Shown here: positions 10,923-57,768 of the stretch, in pieces
Position numbering within the stretch: the stretch's first letter is position 1
How the letters are laid out: the number at the start of each line of letters is the position of its first letter
Origin: Pristiophorus japonicus
Taxonomy: Eukaryota
DNA length: 64,000 nt
Direction of reading: 5' to 3'
Assembly: GCF_044704955.1 (NCBI RefSeq)
Contig: NW_027254394.1
Coordinates: 310,001 to 374,000 of the forward strand
Notes under the pieces: generated by a model
The model's input: only the letters and a program-made list of their open reading frames with translations
What the model was told of the DNA's origin: nothing
The model's database searches: none
Program-made: the position numbers and the translations under genes

Positions 10923-12474
10923 CAAGATTTCCCTCAGTTCCTCCTCCTTACTAGACCCTCTGACCCCTTTTATATCCGGAAGGTTGTTTGTGTCCTCCTT
11001 AGTGAATACTGAACCAAAGTACTTGTTCAATTGGTCTGCCATTTCTTTGTTCCCCGTTATGACTTCCCCTGATTCTGACTGCAGGGGACCTACGTTTGTC
11101 TTTACTAACCTTTTTCTCTTTACATACCTATAGAAACTTTTGCAATCCGTCTTAATATTCCCTGCAAGCTTCTTCTCGCACTCCATTTTCCCTGCCCTAA
11201 TCAAACCCTTTGTCCTCCTCTGCTGCACCACTGCTCAAGCCACGTATTCATCTGCGCTATCCTGCGATTCCTACTCTGACTAGCACGTGGCACTGGTAGC
11301 AATCCCGAGATTACTACTTTTGAGGTCCTACTTTTTAATTTAGCTCCTAGCTCCTTAAATTCATTTCGTAGGACCTCATCCCTTTTTTTACCAATGTGCA
11401 CCACGACAACTGGCTGTTCTCCCTCCCATTTCAGAATGTCCTGCACCCGCTCCGAGACATCCTTGACCCTTGCACCAGGGAGGCAACATACCATCCTGAA
11501 GTCTCGGTTGCGGCCGCAGAAACGCCTATCTATTCCCCTCACCATTGAATCCCCTATCACTATCGCGCTCCCACGCTTTTTCCTGCCCACCTGTGCAGCA
11601 GAGCCAGCCACGGTGCCATGAATTTGGCTGCTGCTGCCCTCCCCTGATGAGTCATCCCCCCCAACAGTACTCAAAGCGGTGTATCTGTTTTGCAGGGGGA
11701 TGACCACAGGGGACCCCTGCACTACCTTCCTTGCACTGCTCTTCCTGCTGGTCTTCCATTCCCTATCTGGCTGTGGACCCTTCTCCTGCGGTAAGACCAA
11801 CTCACTACACGTGATACTCACGTCATTCTCAGAATCGTGGATGGTCCAGAGTGAATCCACCCTCAGCTCCAATTCCGCAACGCGGACCGTCAGGAGCTCG
11901 AGGCGGATACACTTCTCACACACGTAGTCGTCAGGGACACCGGAAGTGTCCCTGAGTTCCCACATGGTACAGGAGGAGCATATCACGTGATCGAGCTCTC
12001 CTGCCATGCCTTAACCCTTAGATACCCTTAAATTGGTAATAACAATGTTACAGTTCACTTACTGATATAAAAATAAAAAGAAAAGCTACTCACCAATCAC
12101 TAGCAAATCACTTACCCCATTGGCTGTGACGTCACCTTTTGATCCCTTTCTACTTCTATTTTGCTTTCTCTCCCGCAGTAGCTGCACAAGTACGCCTTTA
12201 TAGGCCGCTCCAACACTGCTCCCACCTCTCACCAACTGCCGCTGGCTCTCGATCTCCCGCTGGGCCTTTTATAGGCCGCTCCCCTCTCAGCAACTGCCGT
12301 TGGCTCTCGATCTCCCGCTGGGCCTTTTATAGGCCGCTCCCGCCTCTCACCAACTGCCGCTGGCTCTCGATCTCCCGCTGGGCCTTTTATAGGCCGCTCC
12401 CCTCTCACCAACTGCCGCTGGCTCTCGATCTCCCGCTGGGCCTTTTATAGGCCGCTCCTGCCTCTCACCAACTG
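10923..12474 (-). mobile_element. CR1 5' portion (5'UTR, ORF1, internally deleted into ORF2, no 3' end) inside the minisatellite
   Basis: ORF 12007-11201 MAGELDHVICSSC...VIGDSMV is CR1 ORF1; it is fused at 11220-11225 to ORF2 QQRRTKGLIR...ELREIL. Confidence 0.92.
12225..12472 (-). repeat. 58-60 bp tandem monomers (about 4) in the CR1 5'UTR, each with CCTATAAAAGG
   Basis: TGGCTCTCGATCTCCCGCTGGGCCTTTTATAGG recurs at 12243, 12301, 12361 and 12419. Confidence 0.92.
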
Positions 12475-12475
12475 G

Positions 12476-13693
12476 GCCAGAGGTGGGTCTGGAGGGGCTC
12501 CTGGCCAGAGGTGGGTCTGGAGGGGCTCCTGGCCAGAGGTGGGTCTGGAGGGGCTCCTGGCCAGAGGTGGGTCTGGAGGGGCTCCTGGCCAGAGGTGGGT
12601 CTGGAGGGGCTCCTGGCCAGAGGTGGGTCTGGAGGGGCTCCTGGCCAGAGGTGGGTCTGGAGGGGCTCCTGGCCAGAGGTGGGTCTGGAGGGGCTCCTGG
12701 CCAGAGGTGGGTCTGGAGGGGCTCCTGGCCAGAGGTGGGTCTGGAGGGGCTCCTGGCCAGAGGTGGGTCTGGAGGGGCTCCTGGCCAGAGGTGGGTCTGG
12801 AGGGGCTCCTGGCCAGAGGTGGGTCTGGAGGGGCTCCTGCCCAGAGGTGGGTCTGGAGGGGCTCCTGCCCAGAGGTGGGTCTGGAGGGGCACCTGCCCAG
12901 AGGTGGGTCTGGAGGGGCTCCTGGCCAGAGGTGGGTCTGGAGGGGCTCCTGGCCAGAGGTGGGTCTGGAGGGGCTCCTGGCCAGAGGTGGGTCTGGAGGG
13001 GCTCCTGGCCAGAGGTGGACCTGGAGGGGCTCCTGGCCAGAGGTGGACCTGGAGGGGCTCCTGGCCAGAGGTGGACCTGGAGGGGCTCCTGGCCAGAGGT
13101 GGACCTGGAGGGGCTCCTGGCCAGAGGTGGACCTGGAGGGGCTCCTGGCCAGAGGTGGACCTGGAGGGGCTCCTGGCCAGAGGTGGACCTGGAGGGGCTC
13201 CTGGCCAGAGGTGGACCTGGAGGGGCTCCTGGCCAGAGGTGGACCTGGAGGGGCTCCTGGCCAGAGGTGGACCTGGAGGGGCTCCTGGCCAGAGGTGGAC
13301 CTGGAGGGGCTCCTGGCCAGAGGTGGACCTGGAGGGGCTCCTGGCCAGAGGTGGATCTGGAGGGGTACCTGCCCAGAGGTGGGTCTGGAGGGGTACCTGC
13401 CCAGAGGTGGATCTGGAGGGGTACCTGCCCAGAGGTGGATCTGGAGGGGCTCATGGCCAGAGGTGGATCTGGAGGGGTACCTGCCCAGAGGTGGATCTGG
13501 AGGGGCTCATGGCCAGAGGTGGATCTGGAGGGGTACCTGCCCAGAGGTGGGTCTGGAGGGGCTCATGGCCAGAGGTGGATCTGGAGGGGCTCATGGCCAG
13601 AGGTGGATCTGGAGGGGCTCATGGCCAGAGGTGGACCTGGAGGGGCTCCTGGCCAGAGGTGGATCTGGAGGGGTACCTGCCCAGAGGTGGATC
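12476..13693. repeat. 28-bp G-rich minisatellite, about 43 units (GGCCAGAGGTGGGTCTGGAGGGGCTCCT and variants)
   Basis: Direct tandem array; it produces the spurious ~400-aa ORFs in all three plus frames. Confidence 0.98.
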
Positions 13694-14004
13694 TCGTTCC
13701 TCCTGTCCATTAGTTGCCCCCCCACCCCACCACCGCACTACAGGACGAGCAGCCAATGAATAGTACGAGTGGTGCTGCATGCACAACTGCATCAGTAAAA
13801 TGATCAGGCAGGACAAATATCACAAGCTCTTTAATGTCAGTAAGTCCTGTTGCAGAAATGTTGGTGAAGAAGAAAAACTGTTAGTTGAATATTTTGGGTT
13901 CCTGATTTTAGTATGAAAACCCACCTATGAACCCGATGATCAATCTCTTGATGTGATGTTTGTAGTTTGAACAACTGGATGAAATCACCTCTGTGACAAC
14001 TACC

Positions 14005-16033: not shown

Positions 16034-16540
16034 TCCATGTCCTGCCCGGCAGCTGGACACATGGACAGCCTGGTCAGCGGTAGGGAGGGAACAGCAGCGG
16101 CAACACTTGGTCGGTCCACGGCAACCCGGAGGGAGAGAGATGGACAGGTTGTGATCTGGAGGGGCTGAGAGAGGCCACAGGCAACCCGTGCAGCAACAGT
16201 ACATTTTAAATCAGGCTCCCAATTGCACTGTGGGAGCCTGATTTAAATACCTTAATAAAGTGTCCTGCCGCTCCAGGGCAGGATGCTTGGAGACCACAAT
16301 AACCCTCCCCTTCTTGCGTGGTATGTTGGGGACGTGTTTCCAGTATTTAACTCTTGAACACACCTCTCCTGCTCAACGTGGAAGGCAAAAATATCAAAGT
16401 CTGGCTCAGATTTCACCCTCTATTCTGTACGCATAACTCCGTATTGTTACTGGAAAAGAAACAGTTTGTGTAACATAAATAAGATGCTTGTATGGTAACA
16501 TAGTTGGGAATAAAAGCAATATAATGTAAAAGGTACTTAC

Positions 16541-16897
16541 CGGTTACATTCAGCCGGGTTCCATTTCCATAGATTGTTCCCCAAATACCACAAATATAGA
16601 CAGTGCTGTCTCTGTGCTGCACGCCTCTGATGGTCAGAATGTAGCTGTTAATGGAAACATCTCTGGAAAGCTCAAACTGTTTAAAGAAGCCATTGTTTTG
16701 TTAAACCTCGCCAGCTACAGAAAGAGTCAATAAAGGTTTGCTTTTCCCAATTGATGGGTGGTACCAGTGTACAGTATATTTATCCACACGGTCATTCACA
16801 TTGCTGCTCTCCAGGGCACAGCGAAACTACACCATCCCATCTTCGAGCATCGTCACAACTTCTGGGGACTGGATAAGAACCGGACTTGCCTTTAGAC
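16541..16897 (-). pseudogene. VJ-type Ig V-set exon, copy V1 (type A), pseudogene
   Basis: GLKASPVLIQSPEVVTMLEDGMV*FRCALESSNVNDRVDKYTVHWYHPSIGKSKPLLTLSVAGEV*QNNGFFKQFELSRDVSINSYILTIRGVQHRDSTVYICGIWGTIYGNGTRLNVT; phase-1 GTAAGT donor; stops at 16827-29 and 16701-03; acceptor AG mutated to GG. Confidence 0.93.
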
Positions 16898-22562: not shown

Positions 22563-23495
22563 CATAGAAACAAAGAAAATAGGTGCAGGAGTAGGCCATT
22601 CGGCCCTTCGAGCCTGCATCATAGTTGATCATTCCCTCAGTACCCCTTTCCTGCTTTCTCTCCATACCCCTTGATCCCTTTAGCCATAAGGGCCACATCT
22701 AAATTCCTCTTGAATATATCCAACGAACTGGCATCAACAACTCTCTGCGGTAGAGAATTCCACAGGTTAACAACTCTGAGTGAAGAAGTTTCTCCTCATC
22801 TTAGTCCTAAATGGTCTACCCCTTATCCTAAGACTGTGTCCCCTGGTTCTGGACTTCCCCAACATCGGGAACATTCTTGCCGCATCTAACCTGTTCTGTC
22901 AGAATCTTATGTTTCTATGAAATCCCCTCTCATCCTTCTAAACTCCAGTGAATAGAGGCCCAGTCGATCCAGTCTCTCCTCAGATGTCAGTCCTGCCATC
23001 CCAGGAATCAGTCTGGTGAACCTTCGCTGCACTCCGTCTGTAAAGTCCTTACTCTACAGCATGAAACCACACGAGGCACATTCTGGGGACAAGGTCACTC
23101 TGACCGTAACTCTTTATTCACAGGACTCCAAAGACGCTGACCCTGCGTGGGACCTCCCTCTTTATACCTGTGTGTTCAGGTAAGGAGTGTCTCCCACTAG
23201 TTCACCCCTTGTGGTCAAGGTGTGCATCTAGGTTGAGTGTATCCAGTAATACAGTGGTGTTACATTCTGGTTACATACATGACACCCTCAATAGCAAGAA
23301 CGTCCCTTCTTCAGATTACAAGATCAAAACTGAACACAATATTCCAGGTGAGGCCTCACCAAGGCCCTGTACAACTGCCCCTATACTCAAATCCCCTAGA
23401 TATGAAGGCCAACATACCATTTGCCTTCTTCACCGCCTGCTGTACCTGCATGCCAACTTTCAATGACTGATGCACCATGACACCCAGGTCTCGTG
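22563..23495 (-). mobile_element. CR1 3' fragment interrupted by a solo LTR
   Basis: Reverse-complement CR1 3'UTR and RT C-terminus. Confidence 0.9.
23039..23284 (-). mobile_element. Solo LTR (246 bp, Gypsy-like)
   Basis: TG...CA ends; 5-bp TSD CCGTC/CCCTC; TATAAA and AATAAA on the minus strand; removal restores the CR1 sequence. Confidence 0.85.
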
Positions 23496-23496
23496 C

Positions 23497-24120
23497 CGGA
23501 GGCGGGTGGGGAGAGGCTGAGGGCCGGGGCCGGCCTGCAGTGAGCTGGGGGGCGGGTGGGGAGAGGCTGGGGGCCGGGGCCGGCCTGCAGTGAGCTGGGG
23601 GGCGGGCGGGGAGAGGCTGAGGGCCGGGGCCGGCCTGCAGTGAGCTGGGGGGCGGGCGGGGAGAGGCTGAGGGCCGGGGCCGGCCTGCAGTGAGCTGGGG
23701 GGCGGGTGGGGAGAGGCTGAGGGCCGGGGCCGGCCTGCAGTGAGCTGGGGGGCGGGCGGGGAGAGGCTGAGGGCCGGGGCCGGCCTGCAGTGAGCGGGGG
23801 GGGCGGGCGGGGAGAGGCTGAGGGCCGGGGCCGGCCTGCAGTGAGCGGGGGGCGGGCGGGGAGAGGCTGAGGGCCGGGGCCGGGGCCGGCCTGCAGTGAG
23901 CGGGGGGGCGGGCGGGGAGAGGCTGAGGGCCGGGGCCGGGGCCGGCCTGCAGTGAGCGGGGGGGCGGGCGGGGAGAGGCTGAGGGCCGGGAAGGGCCTGT
24001 AGTGAGCGGGGGGCGGGTGGGGAGAGGCTGAGGGCCGGGAAGGGCCTGCAGTGAGCGGGGGGCGGGCGGGGAGAGGCTGGGGGCCGGGGCCGGGGCCGGC
24101 CTGCAGTGAGCGGGGGGCGG
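23497..24120. repeat. GC-rich ~50-bp minisatellite, about 12 units
   Basis: GAGAGGCTGAGGGCCGGGGCCGGCCTGCAGTGAGCTGGGGGGCGGGCGGG recurs every 50 nt from 23511. Confidence 0.95.
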
Positions 24121-24329
24121 ACCCGGGCGGGGGATGGATGGATGGGGTTAGGGGGGAGTGGGCTCCAGGGGCCGAGGTGGTGCGGGGGGGGGTGAGTGTG
24201 TGGCGGCAGTGGGCTGGAGGAGGCAGTGAGCGGGGCGGGGATAAACTCCCTCCAACACTCCCCAGTCAGGGCAGTAACTGCGGCCAATGGCAATGAACCA
24301 TGACACTGCAGGCCCTCAGCCTCTGCCCC

Positions 24330-37502: not shown

Positions 37503-37545
37503 CTTTAAGCTCACTGTATATGGACTGATCCGATTCCTTCAATGC
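37503..37545 (-). CDS. Candidate 43-nt cytoplasmic-tail exon with an ITIM (ALKESDQSIYSELK)
   Basis: Acceptor ctctgttccctgttAG and donor AAG|GTATGT; S-I-Y-S-E-L fits the (S/I/V/L)xYxx(I/V/L) consensus; unique sequence on the same strand as the V exons. Confidence 0.55.
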
Positions 37546-37566: not shown

Positions 37567-40359
37567 ATAGAAACATAGAAACATAGAAAACAGGTGCAGG
37601 AGTAGGCCATTCGGCCCTTCGAGCCTGTACCACCATTCAATAAGATCTTGGCTGATCATTCACCTCAGTACCCCTTTCCTGCTTTCTCTCCATATCCCTT
37701 GACCCCCTTTAGCAGTTAGGGCCATATCTAACTCCCTCTTGAATATATCTAACGAACTGGCATCAACAACTCTGTGTGGTAGAGAATTCCACAGGTTAAC
37801 AACTCTCTGAGTGAAGAAGTTTCTCCTCATCTCGGTCCTAAATGGCTTACCCCTTATCCTTAGACTGTGACCCCTGGTTCTGAACTTCCCCAACATTGGG
37901 AACATTCTTCCTGCATCTAACCTGACTAGTCCCGTCAGAATTTTATATGCCTCTATGAGATTCTCCCCTCATTCTTCTGGATCCCGGGAATCAGTCTGGT
38001 GACCCTTCGCTGCACTCCCTCAATAGCAAGCACGTTCCTCAAATTAGGAGACCAAAACTGCACACAATACTCAAGGTGTGGTCTCACCAAGGTCCTGTAG
38101 AACTGCAGCAAGACCTCTCTGCTCCTATACTCAAATCCCCTTGCTATGAAGGCCAGCATGCCATTTGCTTTCTTTGCTGTCTGCTGTACCTGCATGCCTA
38201 ACTTCAAAGACTGATGTACCATGATACCCAGGTCTCATTGTACCTCCTCTTTTACTAATCTGTCACCATTCAAATAATAATCTACCTTCCTGTTTTTGCC
38301 ACCAAAGTGGATAACCTCACATTTATCCACATTATACTGCATTTGCCCATTCACCTAACCTGTCCAAGTCCCCTGCAGCCTCTTAGCATCCTCTTCGCAG
38401 CTCGCTCTGCCACCCATCTTAGTGTCATCTGCAAACATGGAGATATTACATTCAATTCCTTCGTCAAAGTCATTAATGTATATTGTAAATAGCTGGGGTC
38501 CCAGCATTGAACCCTGCAGCAGCCCACTAGTCACTGCCTGCCATTCTGAAAAGGACCCGTTTATTCCCACTCTTTGCATCCTGTCGGCCAACATCTCTAT
38601 CCACGTCAATATATTACCCCCAATACCATGTGCCTTAATTTTGCACACTAGTCTATTGTGTGGGACATTGTCAAAAGCCTTTTGAAAGTCCAAATACATC
38701 ACATCCACTTATTCTCCCTTATCCACTCTACTAGTTATATCCTCAAAAAGCTCGAGAAGATTTGTCAAGCTTGATTTCCCGTTCATAAATCCATACTGAC
38801 TTGGTTCGATCCTGTCACTGCTTTCCAAATGCGCTGCTATTTCATCTTTAATAATTGATTCCAGCATTTTCCCCACCACCGATGTCAGGCTAACCGGTCT
38901 ATAATTCCCTGTTTTCTCTCCCTCCTTCTTTAAAAAGTGGTGTTACATTAGCTACCCTCCAATCCATAGGAACTGAATCAGAGTCCATGGAATGTTGGAA
39001 AATGACCACCAATGCATCTTCTATTTCTAGAGCCACTTCCTTAAGTACTCTGGAGTGCAGACTATCAGGACCTGGGGATTTATCGGCCTTCAGTCCCTTC
39101 AATTTCCCTAACACCATTTCCTGACTAATAAGGATTTCCCTCAGTTCCCCCTTCTCGCTAGACCCTCTGTCCCATAGTATTTTCGGGAGGTTATTTGTGT
39201 CTTCCTTAGTGAAGACAGAACCAAAGTATTTTTTCAATTGGTCTGCCATTTCCTTGTTCCCCATTATGGATTCCCCTGATTCTGACTGCAAGAGACCTAC
39301 ATTAGTCTTCACTAATATTTTTCTCTTCACATATCTGTAGATGCCTCTGCAGTCAGTTTTTATGTTCCCTGCAAGCTTACTCTCATACCCTATTTTCCCC
39401 CTCCTAATTAAACCCTTAGTCCTCCTCTGCTGAATACTAAATTTCTCCCAGTCCTCAGGTTTGCTGCTTTTTCTGGCCAATTTATATGCTTCTTCCTTGG
39501 ATTTAACACTTTCCCTAATTTCCCTTGTTAGCCACGGCTGAGCCACCTTCCCTTTATTTTTACGCCACACTGTGATGTACAATTGTTGTAGTTCATCCAT
39601 GTGATCTTTAAATGTCTGCCATTGCCTATCCACCGTCAACCCTTTAAGCATCGGTCGCCAATCTATCCTAGCCAATTCACGTCTCATACCGTCGAAGATT
39701 CCTTTCCTTAAGTTCAGAACCCTAGTCTCTAAATTAACTGTGTCACTCTCCATCTTAATGAAGAATTCTACCATATTATGGTCACTCTTCCCCAAGGGGC
39801 CTCGCACGACCAGATTGCTAATTAATCCTCTCTCATTACACAAGACCCAGTCTAGGATGGCCTGCTCTCTTGTTGGTTCCTCGACATATTGTTCTAGAAA
39901 ACCGTCCCTTATACACTCCAGGAAATCCTCCTCCACAGTATTGCTACCAGTTTGGTTAGCCCAATCAATATGTAGATTAAATTCACCCATGATAACTGCT
40001 GTAACCTTATTGCACGCGTCCCTAATTTCCTGTTTGATGCCATCCCCAACCCCCATACTACTGTTTGATGGCCTGTACACAACTCCCACGAACGTTTTCT
40101 GCCCTTTGGTTCTTCGCAGCTCTACCATATAGATTCCACATCATCCACGTTAATGTCCTTCCTTACGATTGCGTTAATCTCCTCTTTAACCAGTAACGCT
40201 ACCCCACCTCCTTTTCCTTCCTGTCTATCCTTCCTGAATATTGAATACCCCTGGATATTGAGTTCCCAGCCTTGGTCACCCTGGAGTATGTCTCCGTAAT
40301 CTCAATTACATCATATCCATTAACATCTATCTGCGCAGTTAATTCGTCCACCTTATTGC
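37567..40359 (-). mobile_element. CR1 LINE ORF2 (5'-truncated)
   Basis: ORF 40128-38899 (endonuclease/tether), RT fragments, and an (ATAGAAAC)n tail at 37567. Confidence 0.95.
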
Positions 40360-40468
40360 ATTAAGTTTACCAGCGGTTTTTGTGATATTAATCAGATACT
40401 GATCAATAAATCCATGTGTAAGAGGTTATTCCTTCTATTCAGGTTAATATAATGTAAACTGTATTTAC

Positions 40469-40813
40469 TGGTTACATTGAGCTGGGTTCCGTTCCCGCTG
40501 ATATCGCCCCACACTTTACAGTAATAGGCGACAGTGTCACTGGGCTGCACTTCTGTGACTGTCAGAATGAAGCTGTCATTGGAGGTGTCTCTGGAAGGCT
40601 GGAGATGGTCAGTGGAACCTGGGCTCCCGCGTGTGCTGCCACTTGCCTCATGTGTTAAAACCCACTCCATATCTTGCCCCAGGAGTTGCCGGTACCAGTG
40701 GACATCGGTGTCACTCACTCTGGCGTTCCACATGGTGCATTGTAACCGTGCCGTGTGACCCTCTGTGACAAGTTCCAGGCTCGGAGACTGGGTCAGGACA
40801 GGGACAACTGCAC
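40469..40813 (-). CDS. VJ-type Ig V-set exon, copy V2 (type B), intact reading frame
   Basis: 345 nt, phase 1 at both ends, acceptor ccattaaAG, donor GTAAAT; GAVVPVLTQSPSLELVTEGHTARLQCTMWNARVSDTDVHWYRQLLGQDMEWVLTHEASGSTRGSPGSTDHLQPSRDTSNDSFILTVTEVQPSDTVAYYCKVWGDISGNGTQLNVT; canonical B-strand Cys, C-strand Trp, DxxxYYC and GxGT. Confidence 0.93.
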
Positions 40814-56127: not shown

Positions 56128-56990
56128 ATGGGCAGGGGGAGAGAGAGAGAGAGAGAGACAGTGAACAGGCGGGGAGAAAGAGAGAGGCCACGATTGGGCA
56201 GGTGAGAGAGAAAGGCCATGATTGGGTGGAAGAGAGAGAGAGACCACGATCGGGTGGGGGGGAGAGAGAGAAAGGCCATGATTGGGCGGGAGAGAGATAG
56301 AGACCATGAACAGGTGGGGAGAGAGAGAGGGCTCGATTGGGTGGGGAGAGAGAGAGAGAGGCCATGATCGGGCGAGGGGGAGAGAGAGAGAGGCCACGAT
56401 TGGGCAGGGGAGAGAGAGAGGCCACGATCGGGCAGGGAGAGAGAGAGGCTACAATCGGGCAGGGAGAGAGAGAGGCTACGATCGGGTGGGGGAGAGAGAG
56501 AGGCCACGATCGGGCAGGGAGAGAGAGAGGCTACGATCGGGCAGGGAGAGAGAGAGGCCACGATTGGGCAGGGGAGAGAGAGAGGCTACGATCGGGCAGG
56601 GAGAGAGAGAGGCCATGATCGGGCAGGGACAGAGAGAGAGGCCACGATCGGGCAGGGGAGAGAGAGAGGCCACGATCGGGCAGGGGAGAGAGAGAGGCCA
56701 CGATCGGGCAGGGGAGAGAGAGAGGCTACAATCGGGCAGGGAGAGAGAGAGGCTACGATCGGGCAGGGAGAGAGAGAGGCCACGATTGGGCAGGGGAGAG
56801 AGAGAGGCTACGATCGGGCAGGGAGAGAGAGAGGCTACAATCGGGCAGGGAGAGAGAGAGGCTACGATCGGGCAGGGAGAGAAAGAGGCCATGATTGGGC
56901 GAGGGAGAGGGGGGAGAGAGAGAGAGAGAGACCACGATCGTGTGGGGGGAGGTGCGGGAGGGGAGGGAGAGAGAGGGCATGATTGGGGGA
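56128..56990. repeat. Purine-rich ~27-28 bp minisatellite (GGCCACGATCGGGCAGGGGAGAGAGAGA), about 30 units
   Basis: Direct tandem units with a variable (GA)n stretch. Confidence 0.95.
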
Positions 56991-57419
56991 GGCGGAAGGG
57001 AAAGGAGAGCGTGCGCTATCTGGAGGACTTGGGCATGTTGGGGACAATTTTCCCATAATTAACACTAACACCCACCCCTCCGATGCTCTCCCGCACTGCG
57101 TGGGGGGGGCAGAGGGTGGCAGGGGGTTAATATCAGGGTCGATTTCATGGTTTAGAGCTCTCTAAATTATTCCTATTACTGCACTTTTCCCTCAACATGT
57201 ATTTTACCGTTGAATCCTGTGTGTGAGATTTTGTCCCACCATGTGCTCACAATTATTTGTTCTGTTAAAAACAAATTGAGTTTGGCCCAGATTTCACCCT
57301 CCATTCTGTAGTTAAAACTCAGTGTTACTGTAAAAGGAACAGCTTGTATAACATTTAAACAAGATGCTTGTACATAACATTATTAGGTATAAAACCAATA
57401 TAACATAGAAGGTACTTAC

Positions 57420-57768
57420 TGGTTACTTTCAGCCGGGTTCCATTTCCATAGATTGTTCCCCAAAATACCACAGATATAGACCGCGCTGTCTCTGGGCTCC
57501 ACGCCTCTGATGGTCAGAATGTAGCTGTTACTGGCAACATCTCTGGAGAGCTGAAACTGCTCAGAGAAACCGTGTGATTGGTCAACCCTGCCATCTGCAC
57601 AATGAGTAAATATTTTGTGTTTCCTATCCTGTGAGAGGTACCAGTGTACAGTATATTTATCCACATTCACATTGCTGCTCTCCAGGGTACACCAAAACTT
57701 CACCGTCCCACCCTCGGGCACCGTCACAACTTCTGGGGACTGGATAAGAACCGGACTTGCCTTTAGAC
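57420..57768 (-). pseudogene. VJ-type Ig V-set exon, copy V3 (type A); +1 frameshift in CDR3 (real or a sequencing error)
   Basis: Acceptor ttcacAG, donor GTAAGT; 349 nt (3n+1); GLKASPVLIQSPEVVTVPEGGTVKFWCTLESS..VHWY..SRDVASNSYILTIRGVEPRDSAVYICGI, then an extra T (A-run 57462-57465), then WGTIYGNGTRLKVT. Confidence 0.92.

Follow-up and report, generated by a model that had tools for sequence, protein, structure and literature searches.

The immunoglobulin exons of the window, a stretch of 64,000 nucleotides from Pristiophorus japonicus (C3782:310001-374000 of a 5.9-Gb genome, G000 in locus labels), are, judged by their sequence, duplicated non-rearranging VJ domains of predicted paired activating and inhibitory surface receptors of chondrichthyans. 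The six-residue junction within this predicted family probably derives from one germline V-J join of a sigma-2-type light chain that preceded the chimaera-shark split. On balance, we favor the more specific reading that RAG made the join in a germ cell of an early chondrichthyan, that it converted an antibody light-chain gene into the founder of an innate paired-receptor family, and that the same junction formed again in a carpet-shark light chain. Tandem VJ domains each encoded by a single exon, the lack of a C1 domain, two kinds of tail, spliced exon joints, a single clade and a nearly fixed loop are the directly demonstrated part of this account. The receptor family is apparently undescribed so far; no description was found in the literature searched, and subscription papers on PRARP, MDIR and the NS5 junction, as well as bioRxiv supplements, could hold one.

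VJ exons in the window

Three V exons lie in the window, all on the minus strand, and in each of them, as at 63 family loci, V and J are joined in a single exon. By reading of its sequence, V1 (16541..16897) is a type A' single-exon VJ domain that has become a pseudo-exon: it contains two stops (TAG at 16829-16827 and TAA at 16703-16701) and its splice acceptor has changed from AG to GG (16899-16898), while its donor is intact. One TAG and one TAA are present in five genomic copies, with V1 counted among them. The 3′ end of V1 reads CGIWGTIYGNGTRLNVT, and its last stretch (16541..16600, minus strand) comprises the F-strand Cys (16592-16590), the six-residue CDR3 GIWGTI, the J-like YGNGTRLNVT and a phase-1 donor. 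V2 (40469..40813, minus strand; protein P0001) is a type B VJ exon with an open frame, intact AG and GT borders, the CDR3 KVWGDI and a 3′ end reading CKVWGDISGNGTQLNVT; its closest named proteins, with 89-93% identity, are from P. japonicus itself. V1 and V2, which the preliminary description had put at about 40% identity, are identical at 43 of 113 aligned residues (38%). Its proposal that their intron starts (16518..16540 and 40446..40468, both minus strand) are homologous also held: the window has two copies of the 13-mer AATATAATGTAAA (at 16518 and 40446), each right behind a splice donor, and the core of this 13-mer also follows type A and B exons at other genomic sites.

V3 (57420..57768, minus strand) is a type A VJ exon with a +1 frameshift within CDR3 (T run at 57465-57462), so that it has a V1-type end that is out of frame past the extra T. 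The insertion is also present in both of the other copies checked. Eighteen genomic matches, V3 included, terminate at the same residue (three were checked), and the frameshift appears to have been amplified along with the array. Sequencing error was ruled out as the source of the V3 frameshift and the V1 stops, since other copies carry them too.

Between V1 and V2 lies the second exon of an ITAM, ALKESDQSIYSELK (37503..37545, minus strand), which has a phase 0 acceptor and stands alone as the vestige of an activating tail. In run contigs, the paralogous pair of exons on C9 (L122) is found spliced. Self-BLAST and comparison with L121, L122 and L129 revealed a multi-copy repeat (37572..40360, no strand assigned) where paralogues have their transmembrane and first cytoplasmic exons; we take it to be LINE-like from the RT-like translation of a related copy. 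No leader exon was found in the window, and the copies of the receptor genes that it contains are broken. The window also holds tandem repeats at 12218-13694, 23495-24132 (GC-rich) and 56133-57009, the GC-rich one being found as well on the array contigs C2571 and C2932.

Architecture of the receptor family

A homologue search returned 104 proteins, 103 of them family proteins of sharks and rays, which are type I membrane proteins with one to nine tandem VJ domains and no C1 motif. Among 113 classed proteins, 40 have a transmembrane segment and a terminal ITSM, 24 an ITAM, 23 a transmembrane segment with another or truncated tail, and 26 no transmembrane call. A C1 motif was detected in none of the 113; the automatic Pfam C1-set label attached to P0004 and P0032 is not borne out by the sequence of P0004. 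The inhibitory tails carry ITIM/ITSM motifs (VYATV, YYADI, TEYAAI) and the activating tails the ITAM YMAL-x7-YSEL, and the same A, B and C domains are carried by ITSM-ended and by ITAM proteins. By analogy, this array of similar ectodomains with opposing predicted tails may be likened to paired receptors. The AlphaFold model shows a V-set fold at high confidence (pLDDT 92.8). Searches of the PDB by sequence and by fold returned generic antibody V domains only, the best fold matches being antibody chains of about 32% identity, several of them named lambda; in the ESM Atlas the first match was an uncharacterised cluster, probably the protein's own, followed by generic V-set clusters.

An intact gene of the order leader-A-B-C-TM-ITIM/ITSM adjoins the window downstream (C3782:303k-201k). 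A single type A exon is preceded by two leader exons of identical peptide sequence, at C3782:303087 and 286573 (L102, L104). Of the 150 scored matches to V2, 147 fall on 18 contigs with their anchor at C9:0.6-6.1 Mb; some of them are halves of broken exons. Some array contigs may be allelic; C2571 and the window are 99.8% identical over 5 kb. On C9 (L122) a phase-0 intron splits the ITAM as Y-M|A-L, and a GT..AG joint across the split was found in contigs of runs X2 and X3, which come from a single study whose run type is not recorded as RNA. Leader-A, A-B and V-A exon joints were seen as loose ends of run contigs, by our own reading of the ends and in that same study. A type C exon at L123:1044 (C691) has a GC splice donor.

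No RSS was detected within 400 bp of the exon at any of 63 family loci, and control RSSs were detected at L092, L132 and L097. A germline-joined light-chain locus was ruled out by the transmembrane tails and the absent C exon, none being found in C3782:200-414 kb. A retrocopy of a somatically rearranged transcript was likewise ruled out, because intact genes have a leader intron and a J donor.

The CDR3 and J region

CDR3 length, measured as residues from the second Cys to the J Phe position, was tabulated for 127 family proteins (103 from the homologue search and 24 from a representative search and cluster look-ups). It is six residues in 262 of 272 V domains of sharks, rays and elephant shark, as it is in V1, V2 and V3, for which an ultra-short CDR3 of equal length had been claimed; of the other ten, five were unparsed, three have nine residues, one has eight (P0041) and one has 15. 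Because the elephant-shark members P0208 and P0329 keep the six-residue loop, this length predates the chimaera-shark split. That split dates to about 420 million years ago. Among the exceptions in length is a divergent N-terminal domain with an extended loop (P0048, P0189, P0191, P0322); it precedes type D domains, falls outside the family in the 41-row V+C tree and may be a second captured V.

In the CDR3/J region, near-invariance is confined to length. The motif W-G-x-I, described as fixed, varies across the family (W 93%, G 78%, I 83%) and in type C is WSYI. The canonical J Phe position is occupied by S in 40%, Y in 35% and F in 11%. The NGT sequon noted in the J motif is present in V1, but NG[S/T] occurs in only 146 of 323 domain ends (45%); a second pattern, an end-of-strand sequon of the NVT type, occurs in 193 of the 323 in the same proteins. 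CDR3 motifs specific to domain types persist from shark to ray (GIWG in A, KVWGDI in B, SVWSYI in C), and four family domains read CSVWGYIYGAG.

Probable kinship to sigma-2 light chains

Outside the family, the best match was a light chain from the 'type I' group, which a table of PMC5985310 equates with sigma-2 (papers are cited here and below for the parts available to us). In the V region, type B has a mean identity of 48% with shark sigma-2, 37% with kappa, 30% with VH, 29% with lambda, 28% with TCR and 25% with NKp30/CD8-like domains. For shark sigma-2, identity is 43% with sigma-2-like chains of coelacanth and caecilian, 40% with kappa and 38% with lambda; that type B resembles shark sigma-2 more than the latter resembles its bony-vertebrate counterparts was counted for a sigma-2 origin. 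We assigned the labels of the outgroups (kappa, lambda, sigma, TCR, NKp30-like, CD8-like, NITR-like, sigma-prime) ourselves from sequence features. For sigma-prime, we also relied on its position on the TCR/IgH contig, as given in table S1 of PMC12227049.

Trees were built without CDR3 or J, from V alignments of about 95 columns, with 83 rows (24 named rows having been dropped as redundant or distant), 51, 45 and, with C domains added, 41 rows; UrIg and PRARP are absent from them. The careful tree search was incomplete for the 83-row tree and the first 51-row tree, and the 41-row tree has no support values. On the V region alone the family forms one clade (SH-aLRT 97 with 83 rows, 85 with 51 rows, and 89 with UFBoot 74 with 45 rows). 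This clade and the lack of RSSs near the exons agree with the earlier opinion that independent RAG joins are unlikely. In each of the five free trees, the family falls within the sigma-2 group or next to it, with best support of SH-aLRT 89 (83 rows) and 83 with UFBoot 76 (45 rows); the branch uniting sigma-2 and the family is below 80 in the 51-row tree, and no nesting branch reaches UFBoot 95. A search for bony-vertebrate sigma-2 with a coelacanth chain returned only the query itself. These comparisons point to the rearranging IgL chains sigma-2 and sigma-prime as the nearest relatives of the family.

Junctions of sigma-2 and sigma-prime

The sigma-2 junction could be parsed in 51 of 66 proteins (15 could not). 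In 48 of the 51, CDR3 has 8-11 residues, and in 48 its W is at position 3 (positions 2-3 ending in W); the commonest J start is GYIF (6). The junction EVWGYI-F/YGGG is found in three of the 51, which belong to zebra, whale and bamboo sharks; epaulette shark and a second bamboo shark are further members of the P0122 cluster. Among the parsed proteins the short junction was thus seen solely in carpet sharks, and the EVWGYI chains nest inside shark sigma-2. Several carpet-shark species have an identical EVWGYI junction (P0117, P0121, P0122, P0313), and such identity in genome-based models suggests that these chains are germline-joined; they are possibly the neonatal germline-joined partner of IgM1gj (PMC5192425). 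Other carpet-shark models read AVWDSSAGY-HS, which would be translation through an RSS heptamer, i.e. of split genes.

In the genome of P. japonicus, a sigma-prime gene on C23 is split, its V bearing an RSS12 and its J, GYVSGNGTPLDVK, preceded by an RSS whose spacer has 24 bases; this J resembles that of type B, DISGNGTQLNVT. The split sigma-prime-type light chain spans C23:3514017-3526276 (L092, L132, L093), and the canonical Phe is missing from its J (GYVSGNGT). Typical type I sigma-2 V and C exons are absent among the scored genome candidates (no C exon in the 150 scored of 1,513, the best reaching 51%), and the type I isotype may be lost or missing from the assembly. A joined VJ of a divergent sigma-2-like light chain lies near the TCR alpha/delta V cluster (C23:8901847, L096; L133:9572-9904); L096 has an orthologue in Heptranchias (P0288), and the C exon of the L096/L133 gene appears out of frame. 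At C8:177.9-178.2 Mb (L099, L100, L207, L217) there are several joined lambda-related light chains with junctions of 8-11 residues, distinct from classical type II lambda (L091).

Variation among copies

Selection was assessed in 18 unique open frames of type A (from 21 extracted of 30 loci) and 23 unique frames of type B (30 loci), all top-ranked matches and hence biased to similar copies. The preliminary expectation that variation concentrates in CDR1- and CDR2-like regions was confirmed for type A, in which amino-acid variants number 25 per 56 sites in C-C'-C'' compared with 37 per 211 elsewhere (Fisher p 6e-5) and 15 per 36 in the BC loop, and failed for type B, in which variation is flat along the domain. 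In type A, the dN/dS calculation that had been proposed gave a pairwise pN/pS of 2.0, which falls to an overall dN/dS of 1.11 (p 0.76) when each variant is counted once, and positive selection is not claimed.

In comparisons between types A-E, identity at four-fold sites is 62% in the 3′ third of the exon and 41% in its 5′ part (p 0.023 by column permutation). Types A, B and D share some 20 bases at the start of the intron (GTAAGT...TTACATT; window 16518-16540 and 40446-40468; L094), even though they are older than the shark-ray split. The shared bases may be a splice element or a product of conversion, and the pattern leaves room for conversion or splice constraint having helped to fix the junction.

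Origin of the junction

That the exon either was never split or descends from one ancient join had been proposed from the constancy of CDR3. Single origin is backed by our data, and of its two branches the ancient join is favored because the nearest relatives have RSS-flanked V and J: in the search for such counterparts the family loci yielded none, and sigma-prime on C23 and horn-shark type I (PMC2193156) are split. The shared CDR3 length follows from exon duplication, and therefore independent joins are unlikely; by itself this length does not separate the two single-origin options. The W-G-x-I motif fits a join, since the end of sigma-2 V (xVW) and the start of J (GYI), minus about four codons, give it. 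P and N nucleotides at the junction are unreadable after such divergence.

We propose that RAG, in a germ cell, would have joined a sigma-2 V (C-x-V-W...) to a J (G-Y-I-F/Y-G-x-G-T) with the loss of about four codons, and that the leader and VJ exons would then have been transferred to exons for a transmembrane segment and ITIM/ITSM or ITAM tails. Duplication of the VJ exon would have produced types A-E, amplified by birth and death. Pairing with VH has presumably been lost, as the mostly absent J Phe and the G-strand sequons argue against a heavy-chain partner. Without it, the J phenylalanine would have mostly disappeared, G-strand sequons would have been gained, and the variable surface would have shifted to BC and C-C'-C'' of the N-terminal domain, which would bind via BC and C'-C'' instead of CDR3. 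The receptors could act in the manner of CEACAM1 and CEACAM3, in which an inhibitory member and an ITAM member have outer domains that are alike and the ITAM member likely serves against microbes that exploit the inhibitory one.

The strongest competitor, which we regard as unlikely, is that the family was never split and descends from the intact VJ exon that a RAG transposon invaded, sigma-2 resembling the family as the rearranging lineage that evolved most slowly or arose first; to about the same degree it is improbable that the family survives as a living relic of the exon RAG first invaded. The AU test tolerates this history (dlnL 6.9, p 0.34 with 51 rows; 5.4, p 0.45 with 45 rows; 8.1, p 0.28 with 41 rows, V+C), and the uniform lack of RSSs near the 63 exons agrees with it. 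Horn shark has split sigma-2 genes and skates have joined ones (PMC2193156, PMC5192425); those of coelacanth, gar and turtle are joined as well (PMC5985310), so that the ancestral state of sigma-2 is argued from parsimony. Moreover, ITIM-bearing VJ receptors that were never split do exist, namely NITR (PMC7916673). However, the constrained trees need a root on a branch of near-zero length (0.02, 45 rows) and leave sigma-2 paraphyletic with respect to kappa, lambda, sigma and VH, and holding all IgL together without the family costs a dlnL of 20.9 (p-AU 0.11, 51 rows). No non-chondrichthyan member was among the best 150 matches of a search of 1.8 billion proteins, beyond which lay 3,555 weaker matches. 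Genomic linkage may also speak against a relic. Among the best candidates scored, the PBX and NOTCH markers of MHC paralogons lie on C8, C19, C20, C24 and two small contigs (one PBX and one NOTCH match), and no PBX, NOTCH or proteasome match falls on the array contig C9; NKp30-like genes lie on C19, a PBX/NOTCH chromosome, and the receptor array lies off such chromosomes. The proteasome search, which placed nothing on C9, is uninformative on linkage.

Less probable still is that several captures or joins converged on a minimal junction and that gene conversion or splice-related constraint later homogenised the 3′ end of the exon. The excess of identical four-fold sites in the 3′ third and the common intron start are in keeping with this, as is the departure of the longer-loop N-terminal domain from the family in the V+C tree. 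Importantly, the carpet-shark EVWGYI chains carry the same six-residue W-G-x-I junction and yet group with sigma-2 (dlnL 14.6-17, p-AU 0.06-0.19 when forced onto the family); the same junction may therefore have arisen twice, and fixed length is no proof against convergent joins. Against several joins within the family are its unity on the V region alone and the type-specific CDR3 motifs, which wholesale conversion would have erased between shark and ray. It is very unlikely that the family and the EVWGYI light chain stem from the same single join, with later homogenisation of the light-chain framework by sigma-2 neighbors: junction length and the letters W-G-Y-I are identical, four family domains come as close as CSVWGYIYGAG, and forced grouping keeps the p-AU just given, but the restriction of the short junction to carpet sharks nested inside shark sigma-2 opposes it.

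Comparison with known systems

That a rejoined Ig gene can become a novel receptor was proposed, without a direct example, by Lee et al. 2000 (PMC2193156). If the germline join that we favor is correct, the family would supply that example, in which a once-joined rearranging antibody gene founded a large innate family kept since before the chimaera-shark split, a case of adaptive-to-innate recycling. The family also provides candidate leukocyte receptors of sharks with predicted built-in ITIM or ITAM tails.

Sigma-2 (sigma-cart, type I, NS5) and sigma-prime are closest to the family in V sequence, and share with it V length, a split leader, W at CDR3 position 3 and the G-Y-I start of J, with carpet-shark members sharing the six-residue junction as well. 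Unlike sigma-2, the family lacks C1, has one to nine tandem VJ domains followed by a transmembrane segment and signalling tail, seldom retains the canonical J Phe, and lies on a different chromosome-scale sequence in species where both were seen. CEACAM1/CEACAM3 and Xenopus Ceacam (PMC5112662) resemble the family in combining similar outer domains with ITIM/ITSM or an ITAM of their own, in the phase-0 intron that splits the YxxL of the ITAM, in a YxN before the ITAM and in the concentration of variation in the N-terminal domain. The outer domains of the shark receptors are nevertheless of the antigen-receptor VJ type, with a canonical disulphide and no IgC2, and the likeness described here is one of architecture. 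Bony-fish NITRs (PMC7916673) also have non-rearranging VJ domains, a transmembrane segment, inhibitory motifs and a cluster evolving by birth and death, but NITR-like V domains group with TCR-like rows away from the family (45- and 41-row trees), and the family has no I domain and activates through its own ITAM instead of a charged transmembrane segment.

UrIg/UrIg2, NKp30 and PRARP (PMC12227049, PMC10751288) share the single-exon VJ, split leader and lack of RSS; in contrast to the family, UrIg, UrIg2 and PRARP have C1 domains, the CDR3 of UrIg is long, and these genes map to the MHC or antigen-receptor complex, which the array, by two markers, does not appear to do. NKp30-like domains are 25% identical to type B. 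UrIg2 was proposed as a never-split relic in PMC12227049, the part of which available to us makes no mention of the shark receptor family. Single-exon VJ genes are usually taken as pre-RAG relics, and the present family would exemplify the reverse route, a warning that a joined VJ exon need not be primordial.
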